Positions 6,351-63,912 of a stretch of DNA of 64,000 bases are shown in pieces. A program made the translations under genes and the position numbers. Under the pieces are notes generated by a model, which was not told where the DNA came from, made no database searches, and saw only the letters and a program-made list of their open reading frames with translations. Each line of letters starts with the position of its first letter. Position 1 is the first letter of the stretch. Origin of the DNA: an uncultured Candidatus Saccharibacteria bacterium (GTDB lineage Bacteria > Patescibacteriota > Minisyncoccia > Phycocordibacterales > UBA5272); NCBI GenBank assembly GCA_964464695.1, contig CAYXKW010000006.1:2489-66488 (forward strand), given 5' to 3'.

Positions 6351-6977
6351 GTGATTGTACTTACGAAAAAAGACACCATTGAAGGTAAAATTAAAGCGCT
6401 TTATTCTGCAAATTTTTCTATTGCTGAAGTAGCAGAAGAACTCAATATGTCACCATCGGGTATTCGGTATCATTTGGTAAAAAATGGAGTAAACATAAGA
6501 AAACGATCTGATGCTGTTAGGGTTAAGCATAATAAAAAATTAAATAGTCATAGTTCGCATATTCCAAAAAATATTCCTATTAATTTACAAAAGATTTATT
6601 TTATAGGATTGTCGCTTTATTGGGGTGAAGGATCGAAAACTGGTAACACGGTTGCAATTACAAATAGTGACCCGTCACTTATTCTCTCTTTTCTTGTGTT
6701 TCTACGTAAAATTTGTTTAATAGATGAAAAAAGACTTCATATCCTTATTCATTACCATGAAAATCAAAATGAGGATTCATTAATTAGACATTGGTCGGAA
6801 ATATGTAAAATTCCAAAGGCGCAATTCTATAAAAGCAGTCTTCATAAAAAAAGTAGTAAAAAGTCGACAAACTATTTAAAATTTGGTACTATTTCACTAC
6901 GCTATGCAGATACAGTCTTGTTTAATGAGTTATTAATAAGGATTGAGCAGTTGAAGATAGTAAATAAGCCAGAATAG
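6351..6977 (+). CDS. HTH-containing protein with a LAGLIDADG-like motif (possible free-standing homing endonuclease); its 3' end overlaps tRNA-Thr
   Basis: N-terminal HTH-like stretch (FSIAEVAEELNMSPSGIRYHLVKNG). A central YFIGLSLYWGEGSKTG resembles the LAGLIDADG core (compare LAGFVDGDGS and LLGLWIGDG). The stop codon (6975-6977) lies inside the tRNA-Thr acceptor stem. Confidence 0.35.
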   Translation: MIVLTKKDTIEGKIKALYSANFSIAEVAEELNMSPSGIRYHLVKNGVNIRKRSDAVRVKHNKKLNSHSSHIPKNIPINLQKIYFIGLSLYWGEGSKTGNTVAITNSDPSLILSFLVFLRKICLIDEKRLHILIHYHENQNEDSLIRHWSEICKIPKAQFYKSSLHKKSSKKSTNYLKFGTISLRYADTVLFNELLIRIEQLKIVNKPE

Positions 6978-7043
6978 CTCAGTTGGTAGAGCAATTGTTT
7001 TGTAAACAATAGGTCCTCGGTTCGAGCCCGAGTTCTGGCTCCA
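6968..7043 (+). tRNA. tRNA-Thr (anticodon TGT)
   Basis: Folded by hand: acceptor GCCAGAA/TTCTGGC, D-arm AGCTCAGTTGGTAGAGC, anticodon stem ATTGT/ACAAT with loop TTTGTAA (TGT), T-arm CTCGGTTCGAGCCCGAG, 3' CCA encoded. Confidence 0.85.
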
Positions 7044-10060: not shown

Positions 10061-11995
10061 ATGAAATTCTCTAAAGCATGGTTGCAAACCTATAGTAAAG
10101 AAGCATTGCCTGACACTAAAGTAATTGAAGAGGTTGTTACTTTTAATGCATTTGAAATAGAAGAAGTAACACAGGTAGAGGGAGATGATATTTTGGATAT
10201 CAAGGTGCTTCCAAACCGTGCACACGATGCTCTTGGTCACAGAGGGATGGCACACGATGTATGTGCGCTTACTGGTTCTACGTTTAATGACCCACATTCA
10301 TACTACAAAGGGGAAGGTGATACAACGGTAGTCTCACCAGTACTTCATATAGATGATACAACGGCTTGCACACGGTTCATGAGTGCTCGTATTGATGGTG
10401 TTACAGTTTTAGAGTCACCGGAGTGGCTCAAGACTCGCTTACAAGCTATTGGACAGAAGAGTATCAACTCAATTGTAGATATTACCAACTTCGTGCAGTT
10501 CTCAATTAATAAACCAATGCACGCTTATGACGCAAATCTTATTTCAGGAGGAATGCTTTCTGCAAGGTTCGCAACTCTTGGAGAGACACTCACTACGTTA
10601 GATGACAAGTCTCTTACCTTAGACGAAACGACGCTCGTCATAGCAGATAATGAGAAACCTCTAGGTCTAGCTGGTATAAAAGGGGGTAAATTTTCTGGCA
10701 TATCACAAGACACCACATCAGTAGTTTTAGAATCAGCCAATTTTAATGGTCCACTCATCAGAAAGACATCTCAGAAATATGGCATTCGTACCGATGCTTC
10801 CAAACGTTTCGAGAACGTCATTAGTGACACATTGGTTGAAGAGGGGTTGCGACTTACCATTTCACTCATTCTTGAATTATATCCTCATGCAAAAGTCTCT
10901 CCTATTGTAGACGTTTATCCAGTCACTCAAGAAAAAGTTACCGTAGATGTATCTGTTACACAGATAAATAAAGTGCTAGGTACGAAACTTACTGTAGAAG
11001 ATGTTACAAAAGTTTTTTCGTCGTTACTTTTTATTCACACGGTAACTGGAGATATTTTTACAGTTTTTGTCCCGGACGAGAGACTCGATGTCAGAATTAA
11101 AGAAGATTTAATCGAAGAAGTAGCACGTGTGCGTGGACTTGCGAGTATTCCGTCAGTCCTCCCAACGCTTTCTAGAAAAGGATTGCCACACAAGCGAATG
11201 TACTACGAAAACAAAATTAGAAAGATTCTTTTTGAACAAGGATTTTCTGATATTATGACGTATTCATTTGGGGATACTGGCGAAGTTGGAATCATTAAGG
11301 GACAGGCAAGTGACAAAGAAAAGCTTCGAAATATTTTGGGTAATGGGGTGCTTGAAGCTTTTCAGATGAACATGCTTAATGCTCCGCTTATGAAGTTAGA
11401 AACAATTAAAATGTATGAGTTTGGAAATATTTTTACAAAAGAATCAGGACAAGGATTCTCTAGCGGAGAGAGACGACATTTCGCAATTTGTTTTGACGAT
11501 GGAAAAAAGAAAACATCGTTTACTGATGAAGTGGATATGATACTAAGTGAGATCAAACGCACTCTGCAGGTTTCTAAAGTTGAATATGAAACTATATCAA
11601 CGAAACCATATGTAATAGAGATTGATTTTGATACACTTATTACATCTCTTCCAGAACCAACCTCCTATGAACCTCTTACACAGAATCCACTTTCTCATGC
11701 TTACCAAGCAATCTCTGCTTATCCGTTTATCACCCGTGATATTGCTATGTGGGTACCTGATTCTACAACATGGGAGAGTGTCAGCGCTCTTTGTTCTCAA
11801 GTGGGTAATCCTCTTGTTGCTCGTACTGATCTTTTTGATACCTTTTCAAAAGAAATTGAAGGTGTAAAAAAGACATCCCTTGCGTTTCGTCTAGTATTTC
11901 AAAGTTTTGAAAAGACGCTTACTGATGACGAAGTTAATGAAATGATGAAGCCATATTATGAGCTATTTAATACTAAAGGTTTTGAAATTAGATAA
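10061..11995 (+). CDS. pheT: Phenylalanine--tRNA ligase beta subunit (compact, 644 aa)
   Basis: N-terminus MKFSKAWLQTY is typical of PheT, it lies immediately downstream of pheS, and B3/B4 and B5 regions are recognisable. Confidence 0.85.
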   Translation: MKFSKAWLQTYSKEALPDTKVIEEVVTFNAFEIEEVTQVEGDDILDIKVLPNRAHDALGHRGMAHDVCALTGSTFNDPHSYYKGEGDTTVVSPVLHIDDTTACTRFMSARIDGVTVLESPEWLKTRLQAIGQKSINSIVDITNFVQFSINKPMHAYDANLISGGMLSARFATLGETLTTLDDKSLTLDETTLVIADNEKPLGLAGIKGGKFSGISQDTTSVVLESANFNGPLIRKTSQKYGIRTDASKRFENVISDTLVEEGLRLTISLILELYPHAKVSPIVDVYPVTQEKVTVDVSVTQINKVLGTKLTVEDVTKVFSSLLFIHTVTGDIFTVFVPDERLDVRIKEDLIEEVARVRGLASIPSVLPTLSRKGLPHKRMYYENKIRKILFEQGFSDIMTYSFGDTGEVGIIKGQASDKEKLRNILGNGVLEAFQMNMLNAPLMKLETIKMYEFGNIFTKESGQGFSSGERRHFAICFDDGKKKTSFTDEVDMILSEIKRTLQVSKVEYETISTKPYVIEIDFDTLITSLPEPTSYEPLTQNPLSHAYQAISAYPFITRDIAMWVPDSTTWESVSALCSQVGNPLVARTDLFDTFSKEIEGVKKTSLAFRLVFQSFEKTLTDDEVNEMMKPYYELFNTKGFEIR

Positions 11996-11997
11996 CT

Positions 11998-13281
11998 ATG
12001 AAATTACGAGAGTATAAAAATGTTCACTGTATAGGAATTGGCGGGATTGGATTGTCTGCACTCGCGCGGTACTGCTATTCACAAGGTGCACATGTTACTG
12101 GAAGTGACGCTGGTTCTTCACGTGTTACACATGATTTACAAAAAGAGGGAATTACGGTGTATCTACGTCACAACGTCGCCCATCTATCACCAGAAACCGA
12201 TTTGGTTATATATTCTATTGCAGTTGAGGATACAAATCCTGAACTACGTGCCGCACAATCAAAAGGACTACCTTGTATGACCTATCCAGAAGCCCTTGGG
12301 TTACTTACACAAGAATATAAAACAATTGCAGTATGTGGTACACATGGCAAAACGACAACGACTGCAATGGTTGCTAGTATGTTACAAAGTTGCGGTATTT
12401 CTCCAACAGTAGTAGTTGGCAGTTTGTTGTCTAACAAGGGAACTAATTTTATGTTAGGTGACAGTGAATATCTTGTTATTGAAGCATGTGAATACAGACG
12501 ATCCTTTCTTAACTTTAAACCAACATATACAATTGTTACAAACATTGATGAGGACCACTTAGATTATTACAGAGATTTGGCGGACATTCATTCTGCGTTT
12601 CAATCTTTTGTTGAAGTGCTTCCAGAACATGGAGCACTTATTACCCACAACGATACATCTCTCTCTACAGTGGCTAAAAAATATAACGCGGACGAAATAC
12701 CTAAAGACACAATTGAGCTTTCAGTGTTAGGTGAGCATAACAAGAAAAATGCCCAACTTGCGCTCATGCTTGCGCACGTTTTAGGATTGGATGAAACACT
12801 AGCTCGCAGTGGTCTACAGTCATTTTCTGGTACATGGAGACGTCTTGAATATCGTGGTATGCAAAAAGGAGCGGTCCTCTATGATGATTACGGTCATCAT
12901 CCACGAGAAATACAAGCAACATTGCAAGCTCTCAGAGAAAAGTATTCTACTCAAAAATTTAAAATTGTCGTCGTGTTCCAGCCACATTTGTACTCACGAA
13001 CTAAGTTACTACTTGAAGAGTTTTCTACAGCATTTACACTTGCAGATACAATTATTATCCTCCCAATTTATGCATCACGTGAAGAAGATGACGGAAGTGT
13101 TTCCTCGGAGGATTTGGTTGAAAAAACAGACAACGCAATCTATATGCAAACATTTGAAGAGGTTAAAAAATATTTAGATAAAAACGCCCACACTGGCTCC
13201 GTTGTTCTAACACTTGGCGCCGGGGACGTCTATCGCCTTTATGATATTTTCAAGACTGAAGAGGATGTGCTAAATGGTTAA
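11998..13281 (+). CDS. murC: UDP-N-acetylmuramate--L-alanine ligase
   Basis: GIGGIGLSALA Rossmann N-terminus, Mur-ligase P-loop GTHGKTTTTAM, DEDHLDYY. Confidence 0.85.
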   Translation: MKLREYKNVHCIGIGGIGLSALARYCYSQGAHVTGSDAGSSRVTHDLQKEGITVYLRHNVAHLSPETDLVIYSIAVEDTNPELRAAQSKGLPCMTYPEALGLLTQEYKTIAVCGTHGKTTTTAMVASMLQSCGISPTVVVGSLLSNKGTNFMLGDSEYLVIEACEYRRSFLNFKPTYTIVTNIDEDHLDYYRDLADIHSAFQSFVEVLPEHGALITHNDTSLSTVAKKYNADEIPKDTIELSVLGEHNKKNAQLALMLAHVLGLDETLARSGLQSFSGTWRRLEYRGMQKGAVLYDDYGHHPREIQATLQALREKYSTQKFKIVVVFQPHLYSRTKLLLEEFSTAFTLADTIIILPIYASREEDDGSVSSEDLVEKTDNAIYMQTFEEVKKYLDKNAHTGSVVLTLGAGDVYRLYDIFKTEEDVLNG

Positions 13282-24889: not shown

Positions 24890-24977
24890 GGAGAGATGCG
24901 AGAGTGGTTTAATCGACTACCTTGGAAAGGTAGCAACTGGGTAACTGGTTCGAGGGTTCGAATCCCTCTCTCTCCGC
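24890..24977 (+). tRNA. tRNA-Ser (anticodon GGA), type II with a long variable arm
   Basis: Acceptor GGAGAGA/TCTCTCC, 3-bp D-stem with a long loop, anticodon stem CTACC/GGTAG with loop TTGGAAA, variable arm AACTGG-GTAA-CTGGTT, T-arm GAGGGTTCGAATCCCTC. Confidence 0.85.
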
Positions 24978-25276
24978 AAAATCGCGAGTGTAATCACGAC
25001 CAGATTTTGCGCAGTGCAGAATGGCAAGTGTATCCACGACCACATTCTGCCTCCGCAGTATTATAAAAAATCGCGAATATACTTACGACCAGATTTTACT
25101 AGTGCATTTCAAGGAGCCCTAAAAGATTGCGATTTCAACAGGTTGAGTACAACCTAAGAAATCGGGAACGTACTCGCGACTATGAATATGCCTCCGCAAA
25201 ATCGCGAGTATACTTACGACCAGATTTTGCTAGTGCATTTCAAGGAGCGTAATCGCGACTATGAATATGCCTCCGC
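24973..25276 (+). repeat. Array of degenerate direct repeats that repeat the tRNA-Ser 3' end (CTCCGCA) four times, each followed by an AAAATCGCGAGT.TACTTACGACCAGATTTTGC.AGTGCATTTCAAGGAGC-type module. This is an att-site-like scar array.
   Basis: CTCCGC(A) occurs at 24971, 25050, 25190 and 25270. Near-identical ~55-bp modules sit at 25066-25120 and 25200-25258, shorter variants at 24978-25012 and 25026-25049, and CGCGACTATGAATATGCCTCCGC occurs twice. Each module has an internal 8-bp inverted repeat GCAAAATC/GATTTTGC. Confidence 0.6.
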
Positions 25277-25971
25277 TATTTTGCAAAACAATAGTAAAGG
25301 CCAGCACCACCGGTTGCCTTGAGTGCTTCCAGACTACATCCTCGGGTCAGGTGTGAAGAATTCCACGATTTCATTGGAGCTGAATCATTTGTGCCGATTC
25401 TGTCATGATGACCAACGTATGCCGCACCTGCATTGCTTGATGTCCAGTTAGAGCATGTTGTGTCCGTTGTTGTTGCTACAAGATTTCCATCGCTATCTGA
25501 ACCTGTTAAAATATCGTGTTCATTAGGTGTGTCACCTCTGCCGTTTACAATAACTCCATTTTCGGTGATCGCTGTGGTTTTAGAAAGAAAATTATTAGTA
25601 TGAAGTTCTTCAATTGTGTTGGCAATGAGTTCTCCGTTATAGTTATACCAAGGACCATCCCCAATTCTTTCTCGAGCGTTTATTGCTGGTGAGTTGTTTC
25701 CTGCTGTTGAGCTTAGATAAGCTACCCATGTTTTGCCATAGACCCCGGACGCTTCTGCAAGCGCTGTACAATAAGCATCAGCACCTACCAAGCCACCTAA
25801 GTTTCCGCCGGCACCTTTGTTTTTACTAGTAATAAAGAATGACATTTCTTTTGAAGATTTCGAAGTCTGAGGGCTGTGTGTAGTTCTAGAAGAATAATAC
25901 AAACTAAGTGCGAGTATTAGGATTATCCCTGAAAGTAACAAGTACATCTTTTTTGTTTTAATGTTCTTCAT
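25276..25971 (-). CDS. Hypothetical secreted protein (signal peptide/TM at the N-terminus)
   Basis: MKNIKTKKMYLLLSGIILILALSLYYS signal. No confident domain. Confidence 0.4.
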   Translation of the reverse strand: MKNIKTKKMYLLLSGIILILALSLYYSSRTTHSPQTSKSSKEMSFFITSKNKGAGGNLGGLVGADAYCTALAEASGVYGKTWVAYLSSTAGNNSPAINARERIGDGPWYNYNGELIANTIEELHTNNFLSKTTAITENGVIVNGRGDTPNEHDILTGSDSDGNLVATTTDTTCSNWTSSNAGAAYVGHHDRIGTNDSAPMKSWNSSHLTRGCSLEALKATGGAGLYYCFAK

Positions 25972-42183: not shown

Positions 42184-42243
42184 GTTTATAGAAAGACAAT
42201 AAACAAAAAGCGACACTGAGGTGTCGCTTTTGTTGTTTGGGGG

Positions 42244-42345
42244 CTACACGCGGGAATCTGTCACAAATCTGCCTCGCGTTGCTCGAAGCAGATTCGCGAC
42301 CCCGTATTCGATTCCCTGTAAGTAACGCAGATCACTTAGTTTCTG
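42244..42345. repeat. GC-rich imperfect palindromic element downstream of tRNA-Arg that carries a tRNA T-arm-like segment (GCGGGAATC) and the GTCACAAATCTGC motif shared with the element at 63575..63840
   Basis: CGCGGGAATCTGTCACAAATCTGC...GCAGATTCGCGACCCCGTATTCGATTCCCTG; arms pair as GGGAATC/GATTCCC and AATCTGC/GCAGATT. Confidence 0.4.
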
Positions 42346-42402
42346 TTGGCATTGTAAAGTTAAAGACACTGACTGGTTACAGTCAGTGTCTTTAACTTTA
42401 TG

Positions 42403-42474
42403 TGCCCTCGGCGGGAATCGAACCTACAATAACTCCTTAGGACGGAGCAGTTATATCCATTTAACTACGAGGGC
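42403..42474 (-). tRNA. tRNA-Arg (anticodon CCT)
   Basis: Minus strand: acceptor GCCCTCG/CGAGGGC, D-arm GTTA-AATGGATA-TAAC, anticodon stem GCTCC/GGAGT with loop GTCCTAA, T-arm GTAGG-TTCGATT-CCCGC (one A-C mismatch). Confidence 0.7.
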
Positions 42475-42537
42475 TGTATTGTCGATTCTACCATATTGTT
42501 CATTTGGTGACATTATGAAATAAGATATACTTACTAC

Positions 42538-48636: not shown

Positions 48637-48767
48637 TAAAAACTTTACATACATATAACTTAGGTGTAGTATTCCTATCAGATGTTCATGTTGGTCGAAA
48701 AACAATGTGTGCGTCGTGCATCTGCTCCACCCAATGAGCAGTTCCATCGTCAATCCAGGAGAAATCC

Positions 48768-48929
48768 ATGAAACGTTCCATCGTCGCTCCCGCCGGCCAA
48801 AGCGCCAATTCCGCCGCCTCCGCACACGCTGGCCACAACGCCGTCAACCGCCGTGCCGCCGAAGATCGCTCCAGTCGTGGCAGTACCGTTCACGCTGGCG
48901 TCCACCTCGAAGGCACCATCGGCCGCTGA
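48768..48929 (+). CDS. SD-led 53-aa ORF inside a strongly GC-rich ~300-bp island upstream of secA; coding status uncertain
   Basis: AGGAGAAATCC-ATG gives a strong SD. The product MKRSIVAPAGQSANSAASAHAGHNAVNRRAAEDRSSRGSTVHAGVHLEGTIGR is Ala/Ser/Gly/His/Arg-rich. The region is ~60% GC, and an overlapping 111-aa Arg-rich frame (48707..49042) also stays open. Terminator CCCACC-CCAAA-GGTGGG-T6 at 48983-49005. Confidence 0.2.
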   Translation: MKRSIVAPAGQSANSAASAHAGHNAVNRRAAEDRSSRGSTVHAGVHLEGTIGR

Positions 48930-49063
48930 TACAAGGTCACGTCAACGGCTTCTTCACAGCAAGCTGTACTTTCAGCAAGAAGCCACCCCACCCCAAAGGT
49001 GGGTTTTTTATTGCTGTATCACGACTACATTCTGCATTATAAATATGATATAATCACGTAACT

Positions 49064-51643
49064 ATGTCTTTCATTCACAAGGGTTTAAGTATTATTTTTC
49101 CAGACGAATCCAAAAATACAATTAAAAAGCTTGCGCCTATCGTTGATAAGGTTTTTTCATACGAAGAAGAACTAAAGACCATCTCTGGGGAAGACCTCAA
49201 GGGTAGAAGTCTTGCATTGAAAGAAAAAGTAATGAAAGAGATTTCTGGACTTACCGGAGAGGAATTAAAATTAAAAGAAAAGAAAGTGCTCGAAGATGTT
49301 TTACCTGAAGCGTTTGCGCTTGTGCGCGAAAGTGCCCGTAGAACACTTCACATGATGCATTATCGAGTACAAGTAATTGGTGGTATCTTACTGCACCGTG
49401 GTCATATTGCAGAAATGAGAACAGGTGAAGGAAAGACTCTTGTTGCGACACTACCAGCGTACTTAAATGCACTCACTGGTCGTGGTGTTCATATTGTTAC
49501 GGTGAACGATTACTTGTCTCGACGTGACGCGGTGTGGATGGGGCAGATTTATGATACTTTAGGTATAACAAGTTCAGTTATTAATCATCAGTCATCATTC
49601 ATGTATGACAGTACGCATTTAACAAAAGAAGAAAGTAAAGAAGAAGATGCTGTTCGTGATGAAGTTGGTTCATATAAAGTTGTGTATGAATATTTGAAAC
49701 CATGCAATAGACAAGAAGCGTATCTTGCAGACATTACGTACGGAACCAATAATGAGTTTGGCTTCGATTATCTACGAGATAATATTGGATATGATAAAGC
49801 TGCTATTACTCAACACACACACCACTATGCAATTGTGGACGAAATAGACTCTATATTAATAGACGAAGCACGTACACCGCTTATTATTTCTGCGCCTGCA
49901 TCACAGTCAAGTGATATGTACACGCGTTTTGCGCAAGTTGCCGAGTCACTTGTAGAAGGTGATGATTACACAGTAGATGAAAAGCAACGCGCTATATCAC
50001 TAACTGAGGATGGAATTACAAAAGCAGAAACTGCACTTAATATTTCAAATATCTATTCAGTCGAAGGAATGAAATATGTTCATCACCTAGAGTCAGCCGT
50101 AAAAGCAAAGGCGCTTTTCCTTCGTGAACGAGAATACGTGGTCAAGGATGGTGAGGTTATTATTGTTGATGAATTCACCGGACGCATGCAACCAGGGCGT
50201 AGGTGGTCAGACGGGCTCCATCAGGCGGTAGAAGCAAAAGAAGGTGTGAAGATTGAGCAAGAAAGTCGAACACTTGCTTCTATTACATTCCAGAACTACT
50301 TTAGATTCTACGAGAGACTATCAGGAATGACAGGAACTGCCGATACTTCAAAAGAAGAGTTCTATAAAGTGTACGGCCTTGTTGTTACACCAATCCCAAC
50401 ACATAATCCAATTAATCGTAGAGATCATAGTGATTTTATTTTTCAAACAGAAAAAGGAAAGTGGCAAGCACTTTCAAAAAAAGTAAAAGAACTTCATGCA
50501 AAAGGTCAACCAGTGCTCATTGGTACGATTTCAATTGAGAAAAATGAGGCAATCTCAAAGTATCTTGAACGTGAAGGAGTGCCACACGCAGTGCTTAACG
50601 CGAAGAATCATGAAAAAGAAGGAGAGATTATTGCTGACGCTGGGAAAAAAGGCGCAGTAACAATCGCAACGAACATGGCAGGTCGTGGAGTGGATATTAA
50701 ACTTGGTGGCCCACAGGCGACAGATAGTGAACGCGAGGATGTTCTTGCTCTCGGAGGACTTCTTGTTATCGGTACTGAGCGTCATGAGGCTCGTCGAATT
50801 GATAATCAGTTACGAGGTCGTTCAGGACGACAAGGGGATGCCGGGGAAACACAATTCTATGTGTCACTTGAAGATGATCTTATGCGTGTCTTTGGTTCAC
50901 AGAACATTAAGACAATGATGGGTAAATTTGGAATACCAGAAGATGAGCCAATCGAAAGTAGACTCGTTTCTCGAGCTCTTGAAGGTGCTCAAGAAAAAAT
51001 TGAAGGATTCCATTTTGATACCCGTAAGCACACACTTCAATATGATGATGTGCTCAATCAACAACGTACAAGTATTTACGCAAAACGTCGTAAGATTTTA
51101 TTTGAAGACGATGTTTTTGTTACAGAAGTCTTAGCTGAATTGATCTCGTACAAGCCAGAGTTAGCGGATATTCTTGCAGAAAAAGAGAAAAAATATGAAA
51201 AAGATGCCGTACGACATATTTTCCGGATTATGATGCTTCAGATTATCGATACATTATGGATGGATCATTTGGACGCAATGGAGCACCTTCGTTCAAGTGT
51301 TAACCTTCGAGCGTATGGCCAGAGAGACCCGCTTGTTGAGTACAAGAAAGAAGGTCTACGAGCATTCCGTACACTTGAAGCAACGCTTCGACATGAATTA
51401 ACGATGTTTATTGAAAACATGGATGGATTTTTTGCACAACAACATGCTCGAAATATGGCAGAGAGTAGCTTCGTGTCTGTCATTCCGAGTGTAGAAGGGC
51501 AAACTTCAACAGGGGCTAACCATGCTGAGAGAGTAAAAGTTGGACGTAACGACCCATGTCCATGTGGAAGTGGTAAGAAATGGAAGAAGTGTGGCGAACT
51601 AAATACTGAGGAACATAAAGAGTTGCTCTCAAAAATTGCTTAG
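49064..51643 (+). CDS. secA: Preprotein translocase ATPase SecA
   Basis: DEAD-like motor (GEGKTLVATLPAYLNAL, DEIDSILIDEARTPLIIS), preprotein cross-linking domain, and a C-terminal zinc finger CPCGSGKKWKKC. Confidence 0.95.
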   Translation: MSFIHKGLSIIFPDESKNTIKKLAPIVDKVFSYEEELKTISGEDLKGRSLALKEKVMKEISGLTGEELKLKEKKVLEDVLPEAFALVRESARRTLHMMHYRVQVIGGILLHRGHIAEMRTGEGKTLVATLPAYLNALTGRGVHIVTVNDYLSRRDAVWMGQIYDTLGITSSVINHQSSFMYDSTHLTKEESKEEDAVRDEVGSYKVVYEYLKPCNRQEAYLADITYGTNNEFGFDYLRDNIGYDKAAITQHTHHYAIVDEIDSILIDEARTPLIISAPASQSSDMYTRFAQVAESLVEGDDYTVDEKQRAISLTEDGITKAETALNISNIYSVEGMKYVHHLESAVKAKALFLREREYVVKDGEVIIVDEFTGRMQPGRRWSDGLHQAVEAKEGVKIEQESRTLASITFQNYFRFYERLSGMTGTADTSKEEFYKVYGLVVTPIPTHNPINRRDHSDFIFQTEKGKWQALSKKVKELHAKGQPVLIGTISIEKNEAISKYLEREGVPHAVLNAKNHEKEGEIIADAGKKGAVTIATNMAGRGVDIKLGGPQATDSEREDVLALGGLLVIGTERHEARRIDNQLRGRSGRQGDAGETQFYVSLEDDLMRVFGSQNIKTMMGKFGIPEDEPIESRLVSRALEGAQEKIEGFHFDTRKHTLQYDDVLNQQRTSIYAKRRKILFEDDVFVTEVLAELISYKPELADILAEKEKKYEKDAVRHIFRIMMLQIIDTLWMDHLDAMEHLRSSVNLRAYGQRDPLVEYKKEGLRAFRTLEATLRHELTMFIENMDGFFAQQHARNMAESSFVSVIPSVEGQTSTGANHAERVKVGRNDPCPCGSGKKWKKCGELNTEEHKELLSKIA

Positions 51644-63500: not shown

Positions 63501-63574
63501 AGTTTAATGGTATCACATTTGTGAACCCTAAAGCTGCATTTCCAATTGATTGAGTACAATCTGTTAAAAATGGG

Positions 63575-63840
63575 AGGATCAAGTCACAAATCTGCTGATT
63601 TGCTTCCCGGAGAATCTTCTACAAGTCCCATGTCGCCGCTCGTCGGACTCGACTTTGCCTCCCGGCATGATTTACTAATCGGCTGCCGCTCGTTCAGCAG
63701 AATGACTCTTGGAGTATGCGATTCGGCCTGCTGGCCTCATAACGCTCTTCCATCGATTCTCCACGCAAGTGACGCAGGTCACTTACTGTGAGGTCACAAA
63801 TATAAGAAACCACCCAACATTGGGTGGTTTCTTATATTTG
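63575..63840. repeat. GC-rich ~260-bp element with imperfect terminal inverted repeats that embed tRNA-Glu T-arm-like segments (CCCGGAGAATC / GATTCTCC) and the GTCACAAATCTGC motif. It abuts the tRNA-Glu 3' end and may be a MITE-like or structured-RNA element.
   Basis: Left end GTCACAAATCTGCTGATTTGCTTCCCGGAGAATC; right end GATTCTCCACGCAAGTGACGCAGGTCAC; then GTCACAAAT begins the perfect palindrome. The core is ~60% GC, against a much lower genome GC. Confidence 0.35.
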
Positions 63841-63847
63841 TGACCTC
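63790..63847. terminator. Perfect 27-bp inverted repeat (58-nt hairpin, 4-nt loop) overlapping the tRNA-Glu 3' end
   Basis: GAGGTCACAAATATAAGAAACCACCCA-ACAT-TGGGTGGTTTCTTATATTTGTGACCTC; the right arm overlaps the tRNA acceptor 3' strand. Confidence 0.55.
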
Positions 63848-63912
63848 ACGGAGAATCGAACTCCGATTACAGGCATGAGAAGCCTGTGTCCTAACCGTTA
63901 GACGATGAGGCC
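63841..63912 (-). tRNA. tRNA-Glu (anticodon CTC)
   Basis: Minus strand: acceptor GGCCTCA/TGAGGTC (one G-U pair), D-arm GTCT-AACGGTTA-GGAC, anticodon stem CAGGC/GCCTG with loop TTCTCAT, T-arm CGGAG-TTCGATT-CTCCG. Confidence 0.8.

Follow-up and report, generated by a model that had tools for sequence, protein, structure and literature searches.

Modular, single-strand-folded elements 3' of tRNA genes form a Patescibacteria-wide family

Here we analysed a 64,000-nt stretch of contig CAYXKW010000006.1 from an uncultured Candidatus Saccharibacteria bacterium (the window; 38.6% G+C), in which ARAGORN finds five tRNA genes. Two of them, tRNA-Arg(CCT) and tRNA-Glu(CTC), lie on the minus strand, and each is accompanied on the same strand by a GC-rich segment, which therefore lies 3' of its tRNA in tRNA orientation. 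An earlier reading made from the letters alone (the sequence-only reading) had flagged these two segments, and they are largely present as described, with a G+C fraction of 0.55-0.59 in 80-nt windows against 0.386 for the whole window. Both are members of a Patescibacteria-wide family of modular, single-strand-folded elements located 3' of tRNA genes, referred to below as units.

Anatomy of the units beside tRNA-Arg and tRNA-Glu

Read on the tRNA strand, the common order starts from a tRNA gene that encodes C74 and not the full CCA. Behind it come a hairpin (hairpin T), a segment (i) in many units, the dinucleotide AG, hairpin A (UAAGUGAYCUGCGUYACUU), ACG, a 10-13-nt antisense segment (ii), a GAAUAG bulge, hairpin B (consensus GGGGUCGCGA...UUGUGACC), and a segment (iii). 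Segment (i) is antisense to the acceptor 3' strand and segment (ii) to the T-loop and T-stem 3' strand, while segment (iii) repeats the tRNA in sense orientation, beginning at T-loop position 56/57 and ending with the discriminator plus C. These three segments are locus-specific and derive from the host tRNA; the conserved parts are hairpin A, the GAAUAG bulge, and hairpin B with its two conserved G-U pairs. A unit measures only ~100-220 nt. In the window, tRNA-Arg, tRNA-Glu, and tRNA-Phe are followed by C and A only, and tRNA-Thr (6968-7043) is followed by CCA (GGCTCCA). The features of both loci are collected in Table 1.

Table 1 Coordinates of the features at the tRNA-Arg and tRNA-Glu loci of the window
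Feature	Position	Strand	Description	Basis
Promoter-like site (Arg)	42485..42513	-	upstream of tRNA-Arg; ATGTCA, 17 nt, TG-TAGAAT	consensus match only
tRNA-Arg	42402..42474	-	anticodon CCT; CCA not encoded, C then A/T-rich sequence	ARAGORN, Rfam
Hairpin T (Arg)	42356..42399	-	perfect 21-bp arms, 4-nt loop, directly after tRNA; no canonical T-run	not called by terminator scan
Hairpin A (Arg)	42318..42339	-	CUAAGUGAUCUGCGUUACUUAC; two G-U wobbles, pairing on minus strand only	motif search, fold, covariation
Segment (ii) (Arg)	42307..42317	-	AGGGAAUCGAA; antisense to tRNA-Arg over T-loop and T-stem 3' strand; gives helix P2 its 5' strand	
Invariant GAAU (Arg)	42306-42309	-	overlaps 3' end of segment (ii); family consensus of P2-hairpin B stretch is GAAUAG	
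UACGG (Arg)	42302..42306	-	3' end of unpaired stretch between P2 and hairpin B	alignment
Hairpin B (Arg)	42260..42301	-	GGUCGCGAAUCUGC...GCAGAUUUGUGAC; 3' arm is the shared 13-mer on the plus strand (42260-42272)	
Segment (iii) (Arg)	42249..42259	-	AGAUUCCCGCG; 9-nt sense copy of tRNA-Arg 42411-42419; 3' strand of P2	
Bidirectional intrinsic terminator	42206..42231	.	11-bp stem; closes tRNA-plus-element unit and convergent glutaredoxin gene	terminator scan
tRNA-Glu	63840..63912	-	anticodon CTC	ARAGORN, Rfam
Extended hairpin T (Glu)	63788..63849	-	perfect 62-bp palindrome, 30-nt arms; takes in last 10 nt of tRNA	
Segment (i) (Glu)	63788-63796	-	UGACCUCAC; antisense to acceptor 3' strand; inside extended hairpin T	
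Hairpin A (Glu)	63765..63787	-	AGUAAGUGACCUGCGUCACUUGC	
Segment (ii) (Glu)	63753..63762	-	GGAGAAUCGA; perfect 10-nt complement of tRNA-Glu 63850-63859	
Extra hairpin domain (Glu)	63708..63752	-	in place of the mere GAAUAG bulge of compact units	comparison with L056, L030
Hairpin B 5' arm (Glu)	63695..63707	-	AGUCAUUCUGCUG	inverted repeat I4
Nested module (Glu)	63606..63694	-	in hairpin B tip; GAUUAGUAAAUC...AAAGUCGAGUCCGACGAGCGGCGA...UUGUAG	
Sense copy of nested module (Glu)	63606-63616	-	GAUUCUCCG; ends the module with its own tRNA copy	
Hairpin B 3' arm (Glu)	63582..63597	-	CAGCAGAUUUGUGACU; includes shared 13-mer (63583-63595, plus strand)	
Degenerate terminal sense copy (Glu)	63572..63581	-	UGAUCCUCCC; GAUCCUCC matches GAUUCUCC of the tRNA at 7/8 positions	

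The 13-mer GTCACAAATCTGC, which the sequence-only reading reported as shared by the two segments, occurs exactly twice in the 64 kb, at 42260-42272 and 63583-63595, and forms the 3' arm of hairpin B. Its partner is found as a wobbled version, GTCGCGAATCTGC, on the minus strand at 42288-42300. The stronger shared motif, absent from that reading, is the 19-mer TAAGTGAYCTGCGTYACTT of hairpin A, located on the minus strand at 42320-42338 and 63767-63785 (two matches against 0.05 expected, with 0 of 100 shuffles reaching two). The reported copies of the T-arm are also in place. Beside tRNA-Arg, these are an antisense AGGGAATCGAA (42307-42317) and a sense GATTCCCGC (within 42249-42259), with the tRNA's own sequence at 42411-42419; beside tRNA-Glu, they are an antisense GGAGAATCGA (63753-63762), perfectly complementary over 10 nt to the tRNA at 63850-63859, and a sense GATTCTCC (63609-63616). 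The ~30-bp imperfect terminal inverted repeats ascribed to the Glu copy did not hold up. The sole 30-nt inverted repeat there is the perfect 62-bp palindrome at 63788-63849, which does not mark the element termini and sits between the tRNA and the element, overlapping the last 10 nt of the tRNA. The rest of the inverted repeats either form internal stems or have their partner strand in the tRNA.

At the Arg locus, the identity of segment (iii) with the tRNA ends at the same point as its identity with the orthologous locus L024, described below. In the Glu copy, the module nested in hairpin B has a homolog in the close relative L056, where it forms a separate tandem unit after a compact unit. 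The order at the Arg locus is promoter-like site, tRNA, hairpin without a T-run, element, and canonical terminator, which fits one transcription unit. The placement of the unit between a promoter-like site and a canonical terminator also speaks for the tRNA-linked structured RNAs or processing/termination modules that the sequence-only reading had offered as an alternative. Two plus-strand open reading frames (ORFs) overlapping the segments, at 42237-42395 and 63546-63791, have no Pfam match. A plus-strand RNA was rejected for the Arg element, which has a folding z-score of -0.2 on the plus strand against -3.9 on the minus strand.

Hairpin T is generally a long perfect palindrome in the window and in ~40 related loci; its arms have a median of 20 nt and reach 30 nt at most, often around a 2-nt centre. 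The ordinary terminator at 42206-42231, with its 11-bp stem, has arms of about half the median length. Between lineages its sequence is wholly different, yet it is still perfect.

Family membership, covariation, and conservation

The 19-mer of hairpin A, searched in one genome per species, returned 26 contigs. About 20 of them are metagenome-assembled genomes (MAGs) labelled Saccharibacteria, Paceibacterota, Kaiserbacteria, or Gracilibacteria, or unclassified contigs of the same architecture, and the remaining matches look like chance. A 22-mer returned 31 more contigs from metagenomes. In total, the hairpin A motif led to ~50 contigs, almost all from Patescibacteria (the candidate phyla radiation, CPR) and most of them with a CPR phylum label, and the related loci were analysed as 8-kb loci from these contigs, labelled L0xx, together with one 64-kb window. 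In nearly all matched loci, a tRNA and a long hairpin precede the motif by 50-80 nt. Units are always 3' of a tRNA and in tRNA orientation, and the tRNAs in front of them cover 15 amino acids (Glu, Arg, Met, Asp, Gly, Tyr, Leu, Ile, Lys, Phe, Trp, Pro, Val, Ser, and Gln). A few loci contain several tRNAs, most of which carry a unit behind them. A covariance model built on compact units (R1) and searched against the fetched loci finds more units beside other tRNAs of the same loci, with scores reaching 104 bits; some copies of hairpin A have a different stem and the same loop. Across these loci, the two window copies, like units beside different tRNAs in general, share conserved motifs only. 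A Saccharibacteria contig (L013, 4165-4183) contains the exact 19-mer with neither an upstream tRNA nor a downstream hairpin B, which is either a chance match or another context for hairpin A.

These numbers dispose of the explanation in which ordinary terminator hairpins downstream of two tRNAs would resemble each other by chance. Terminator-like hairpins are indeed found at both loci. However, this explanation is refuted by the excess of the 19-mer (2 matches against 0.05 expected), by the ~50 loci of the same architecture, and by R1 scores of up to 104 bits, and we give it practically no weight. The sequence-only reading had allowed that the two loci might be the sole copies and alike in the 13-mer alone; other copies exist, and the likeness reaches far beyond the 13-mer.

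Besides the compact units, there is a second unit type (L017, L026-L028, L031-L033, L036, L038-L040, L058, and L060), in which segment (ii) is antisense to the last few nucleotides of the tRNA and the trailer just 5' of hairpin T, and a longer module precedes hairpin B. Helix P1 of this type covaries between lineages, being CCCGCCGAGG/CGCCTCGGCGGG in one and CCCGCCAAGGTA/TACCTTGGCGGG in another. Further module types exist as well.

The fold of the compact units is supported by covariation. An independent MAFFT alignment of 12 compact units, with 30 predicted pairs, shows compensatory changes in 16 pairs. In an alignment of 28 units, 94.1% of cells are paired and 25 of the 30 pairs have changed on both sides, which none of 500 shuffles reach, and slid controls give 33-43%; since this alignment was fitted to R1, its numbers are somewhat inflated, and the MAFFT alignment agrees with it. 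The covariation analysis that the sequence-only reading had called for thus returns a strong signal. Wobbles in the 12-unit table amount to ~30 G-U cells and one C-A on the tRNA strand. As mismatches are almost all G-U on this strand, the sense strand is the one that folds, either as RNA or as single-stranded DNA. Single-sequence folding of the Glu element does not separate the strands (z = -2.9 on plus, -2.2 on minus), so the strand assignment there rests on this wobble pattern. Taken with the constant position 3' of tRNAs, the strand-specific fold and the covariation support the earlier suggestion of tRNA-linked structured RNAs or processing/termination modules.

The link to the neighbouring tRNA was measured in 52 non-redundant tRNAs as the longest downstream sense copy of the last 20 nt of the tRNA, with the upstream flank as control. 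The downstream copy averages 10 nt for motif-selected tRNAs and 8.2 nt for unselected tRNAs of the same loci, against 5.8-6.0 nt upstream, where it never exceeds 8 nt. Copies of 16-20 nt are present in nine of the 52; sense copies of 18-20 nt are seen in L007, L009, L015, L016, L029, L026, and L031, and copies of 9 nt in each of the two window units. The 13 nt that follow ACG in a unit pair with 10-13 nt immediately 5' of hairpin T at their own locus. In addition, the element's invariant GAAU has its complement in G53-U54-U55-C56, which is universal in tRNAs.

Selection on the element can be read from the tRNA-Arg(CCT) locus of L024, a Paceibacterota MAG, which is syntenic with the window. Here the neighbouring protein is 40% identical and the tRNA ~95% identical, and the element core from hairpin A to GATTCC is ~90% identical (80/89). 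Identity stops immediately after GATTCC. Hairpin T has no shared sequence between the two loci and is still a perfect hairpin in both. The core is therefore constrained comparably to the tRNA, and hairpin T is constrained only to pair. The element core is under purifying selection. From the same alignment, the acceptor part of segment (iii) appears dispensable in the window Arg/L024 lineage.

This conservation also bears on the idea that the segments are decayed attL/attR scars of an integrase-mediated prophage or island insertion, with no present function. Direct repeats of the 3' part of the tRNA downstream of tRNAs, as well as cargo genes in some loci, are what such an insertion would leave behind. 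However, neither the covariation of 25 of 30 pairs nor the conserved G-U pairs would persist in a scar, nor would ~90% identity beside a neighbouring protein that is 40% identical, nor a 19-mer identical across contigs labelled as several CPR phyla. A scar also leaves the antisense copies unexplained, and no integrase lies nearby. Covariation and conservation largely refute this explanation, and we regard it as improbable. We are highly confident that the units form a real, conserved, tRNA-linked structured family.

Other tRNAs of the window differ in their flanks. Neither tRNA-Thr nor tRNA-Phe of the window has a recognisable flank unit, although the L024 ortholog of tRNA-Phe does, and an empty-site comparison between the unit-free tRNA-Phe of the window and the L024 locus found the flanks to be too diverged. 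Directly downstream of tRNA-Ser(GGA) (24890-24977) is a ~320-bp array of hairpins (24972-25290, plus strand; z = -4.55) with variable perfect stems and a conserved 19-nt loop, GCGAGTGTAATCACGACCA, plus variants. Copies of CCTCCGCA, which resembles the 3' end of tRNA-Ser, are interspersed in this array. The loop motif is absent from all other fetched loci, and the array may be another type of tRNA-flank element.

Two possible roles: co-transcribed partner of the tRNA or DNA recombination site

The element is probably a conserved single-strand module that pairs with, or mimics, the 3' half of its tRNA. As to how it might do so, we favour a model in which the unit would be an RNA co-transcribed with its tRNA by read-through of hairpin T and would adopt two exclusive folds; we put the probability of this model at roughly 0.5. 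Whole co-transcripts of both loci are predicted to form a three-way junction (z = -9.5 and -9.4), in which, around hairpins T and A, segment (ii) pairs with the T-arm 3' strand of the tRNA and segment (i) with its acceptor 3' strand. The minus strand of the Arg element alone is predicted to fold into a rod, with segments (ii) and (iii) paired. Together, these two predictions favour an RNA with two folds.

In this model, the long perfect hairpin T would be read through, joining unit and tRNA in one transcript. In the first fold, the three-way junction, segments (i) and (ii) would capture the acceptor and T-arm 3' strands of the tRNA around hairpins T and A. In the second fold, the rod, segment (ii), together with segment (i) where present, would pair with the unit's own copy, segment (iii), and leave the tRNA free. 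The resulting helix would have the T-stem sequence of the tRNA, and that of the acceptor stem too where segment (i) and a full segment (iii) are present. Hairpins A and B may be binding sites for a conserved factor, acting as a protein scaffold, and hairpin T is a possible cleavage or processing stem, of a length that would suit RNase III. The likely role would be in maturation or quality control (surveillance) of the tRNA 3' end, or else in the release of a tRNA-coupled small RNA.

Several points weigh against this model. Every structural argument holds equally for folded single-stranded DNA. In many relatives, hairpin T resembles a strong bidirectional intrinsic terminator (A-tract, GC-rich stem, T-tract), which would limit read-through; at the two window loci, the terminator scan did not call hairpin T. 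No separate promoter for the element was evident in the scan of the window loci. The predicted lowest-energy fold of the read-through transcript destroys the tRNA cloverleaf, which is hard to square with a simple helper role. The acceptor-like helix between segments (i) and (iii) is not kept in decayed copies (the window Arg locus and L024), and mimicry of a full minihelix is thus not essential. Moreover, the loci are dynamic at the DNA level, with tandem or nested units and gene cargo between units, and both the unit type and the presence or absence of a unit differ between orthologous tRNAs of different lineages.

The main rival to co-transcription takes up this last set of observations, the tRNA flanks being hotspots of insertion as well. 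Here, the unit would be a substrate of recombination or transposition at the DNA level, either a non-autonomous element or an attachment site for cassettes. A recombinase or transposase with its gene elsewhere in the genome would recognise the unit as a folded single strand, in a manner likened to integron attC sites, CTX-phage attP, and REPIN hairpins. Insertion would take place at tRNA 3' ends, which the unit would restore. The sense copy would then correspond to the att core or to a target duplication, and the antisense copies would rebuild a duplex target in the folded strand. The direct repeat runs from the T-loop to the end of the tRNA, and this block is the identity block of T-loop-type tRNA-integrating elements. 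Units are found in tandem arrays (L006, L008, L016, L022, and L054) and nested in one another. They also enclose genes. In L007 (24-1659, minus strand), an S-adenosylmethionine (SAM) methyltransferase gene with its own TTGACA/TATAAT promoter-like site lies between two near-identical units, which differ at 2 positions of hairpin B; of their tRNA copies, the distal one is complete and the proximal one breaks off immediately after AAATCC. In L021 (1-2930, plus strand), the enclosed genes encode a TylF-like O-methyltransferase and a carbamoyltransferase, and both flanking units end in the same copy of the tRNA-Leu 3' end. Neither the L007 nor the L021 cargo contains an integrase. In L056 (150-745), ~590 bp with a small ORF separate the end of tRNA-Glu (GGTCAC) from a hairpin T homologous to that of the window at 63788-63849. 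The right end of this insert (AGTTCTATC..AAGTCTCAC) resembles right ends in L028 and L035, which suggests a separate element family with the extreme 3' end of tRNA-Glu as its insertion site. Breaks in metagenome contigs often fall within units: contigs of the sets L034, L035, and L050 and L037, L044, and L045 (each set from the same metagenomes) start or end in identical hairpin T and hairpin A sequences and have differing upstream contexts, so that units appear to be repeated within a genome and to break its assembly. Finally, an IS110-family element targets a related unit.

Other evidence tells against a recombination site. When the 339 ORFs flanking units at ~45 loci, up to 3 kb away, were clustered, no recombinase or transposase recurred; the neighbours are housekeeping genes, several of them common to loci. 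Hairpin B differs widely between units beside different tRNAs. At a syntenic site and across deep divergence, the Arg unit and its ortholog have kept ~90% identity with hairpin T wholly replaced, which fits selected vertical inheritance better than recent mobility, and helices formed on the host-specific trailer covary in place between related lineages. Units were also not found in the viral contigs and phage genomes searched: an 18-mer search of IMG/VR gave two unrelated matches only, the 14-mer GAATAGGGGTCGCG gave at least 120 viral matches, with none of 80 loci scanned fitting R1, and blastn against 50,697 phage genomes gave no match. On balance, a recombination site is a serious but less probable explanation than co-transcription.

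The IS110-family element raises a further possibility, that units originate from IS110/IS1111-family insertion sequences with tRNA genes as their targets, either as bridge or seek RNAs or as end fragments. In L057, and in the near-identical L032 and L051, a transposase (PF01548 and PF02371) lies inside a related unit, with segment (ii) on one side and the distal hairpin on the other. The L057 element (11096-12432), in a tRNA-Glu flank unit, has DEDD_Tnp_IS110 and Transposase_20 domains over two ORFs and subterminal inverted repeats CATAGAACCC/GGGTTCTATAG. The sense and antisense matches to the target are also formally reminiscent of bridge RNAs. However, the same unit type is intact without an insertion sequence in L031 and L026, where the junction is the exact insertion point of L057, and the IS110-family element in L057 thus invades a pre-existing unit. 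The sense segments correspond to the same positions of the tRNA as the antisense segments, and the two are base-paired to one another rather than lying in open internal loops, and no IS110 gene is near the two window copies or recurrent near other units. We therefore consider this origin very unlikely.

On a wider view, which we offer tentatively, Patescibacteria may keep, next to many of their tRNA genes, a partner RNA on the common scaffold of hairpins A and B. Such an RNA would have a ~13-nt guide against the T-arm of its own tRNA, or against the 3' end and trailer, and an internal decoy with that same sequence; a conserved protein would read the scaffold. The system would be programmed tRNA by tRNA through base-pairing, and would serve guided 3'-end processing, modification, or surveillance; failing that, the unit may be an RNA- or single-stranded DNA-programmed platform that captures gene cassettes at tRNA genes. 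Units are widespread and CPR genomes are small, so the retention of this non-coding DNA suggests a function. If the units are RNA, they would represent a new class of tRNA-coupled non-coding RNA, with specificity set by base-pairing with its own tRNA, and would bear on how reduced episymbionts mature or police their tRNAs. If they are recombination substrates, tRNA genes would be the anchor of a cassette system of a new kind, independent of integrases. In both cases, the annotation of thousands of CPR genomes gains a model for what has been a blind spot, and the family explains frequent assembly breaks beside tRNAs.

The window also contains an island of up to 75% G+C at 48734-48980 (plus strand). 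It contains a 53-aa ORF (48768-48929; MKRSIVAPAGQSANSAAS...) with an AGGAG ribosome-binding site, as well as a terminator hairpin, and lies just upstream of an 859-aa ORF (49064-51643).

Comparison with known systems

At gathering thresholds, Rfam 15 identifies tRNAs only across the whole window; E-values of up to 10 at both loci add spurious hairpin matches to microRNA (miRNA) and small nucleolar RNA (snoRNA) models. ARAGORN does not call the elements as tRNA or transfer-messenger RNA (tmRNA), and the Rfam models for both do not detect them. The searchable full-text literature yielded no description of these units.

In the rod fold, units with segment (i) and a full copy (L009 and L029, for example) reproduce the T-stem and acceptor stem of the tRNA. 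RNase P, RNase Z, and the CCA-adding enzyme read this T-stem/acceptor type of helix. Unlike tRNA-like structures and tRNA-punctuated small RNAs, the units copy their own neighbouring tRNA in both sense and antisense. They also have no equivalents of the T-loop, D-arm, or anticodon arm, and the acceptor-like helix is dispensable in decayed copies.

Phage and island att sites in tRNA genes resemble the units in the direct repeat from the T-loop to the tRNA end and in the arrays and cargo of some relatives. The units differ in being ~100-220 nt long, with antisense copies, a covarying strand-specific fold, and a core conserved like a functional gene. No recurrent recombinase was found within 3 kb of units, the window copies hold no gene, and the cargo of L007 and L021 is without an integrase.

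The sequence-only reading had likened the Glu copy to a miniature inverted-repeat transposable element (MITE). Like MITEs, the units are small, non-coding, and multi-copy, with internal palindromes. However, they have no terminal inverted repeats, keep a strict position and orientation to tRNAs, and are divergent beside different tRNAs, where copies in the 8-kb loci and the 64-kb window share conserved motifs only. Contig breaks, for their part, suggest that some repeats are identical. The repeat is a copy of the 3' part of the tRNA, of 8-20 nt and up to ~50 nt in L009, rather than a target duplication of fixed length, and no transposase recurs. The MITE-like reading is therefore set aside.

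REP, BIME, and REPIN elements and integron attC sites resemble the units in some respects. These are also extragenic, multi-copy hairpin elements at gene 3' ends, clustered or nested, with conserved structure and variable sequence, and they too are targeted by IS110-family elements, as a unit is in L057. The units have a strand-specific hairpin with a conserved bulge, where attC is defined by a folded hairpin with extrahelical bases and an R-box core. In contrast to all of these, each unit belongs to a tRNA gene and is fitted to that tRNA. Near units, neither a RAYT nor an IntI gene was seen, with no search aimed at IntI.

TIGR (tandem interspaced guide RNA) arrays occur in CPR bacteria and phages, where 8-12-nt edge and loop repeats alternate with 9-nt spacers next to a gene for the Nop-domain protein Tas (PMC12045711). 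Like the units, these arrays are present in CPR bacteria; they are repetitive, code for RNA, and have short conserved motifs. TIGR arrays were rejected as candidates, since the unit loci show neither such a repeat-spacer arrangement nor a Tas gene.

In arrangement, the units also resemble tRNA-like structures and tRNA-punctuated small RNAs, such as plant mitochondrial t-elements, dicistronic tRNA-snoRNA genes, and mascRNA, in which a structured RNA likewise lies directly beside a tRNA or tRNA-like helix. To our knowledge, the combination of a tRNA-linked structured RNA with repeats targeted to that tRNA seems unreported. The underlying principle, in which each tRNA has a partner module with base-pairing as its programme, stands a substantial chance of being new.

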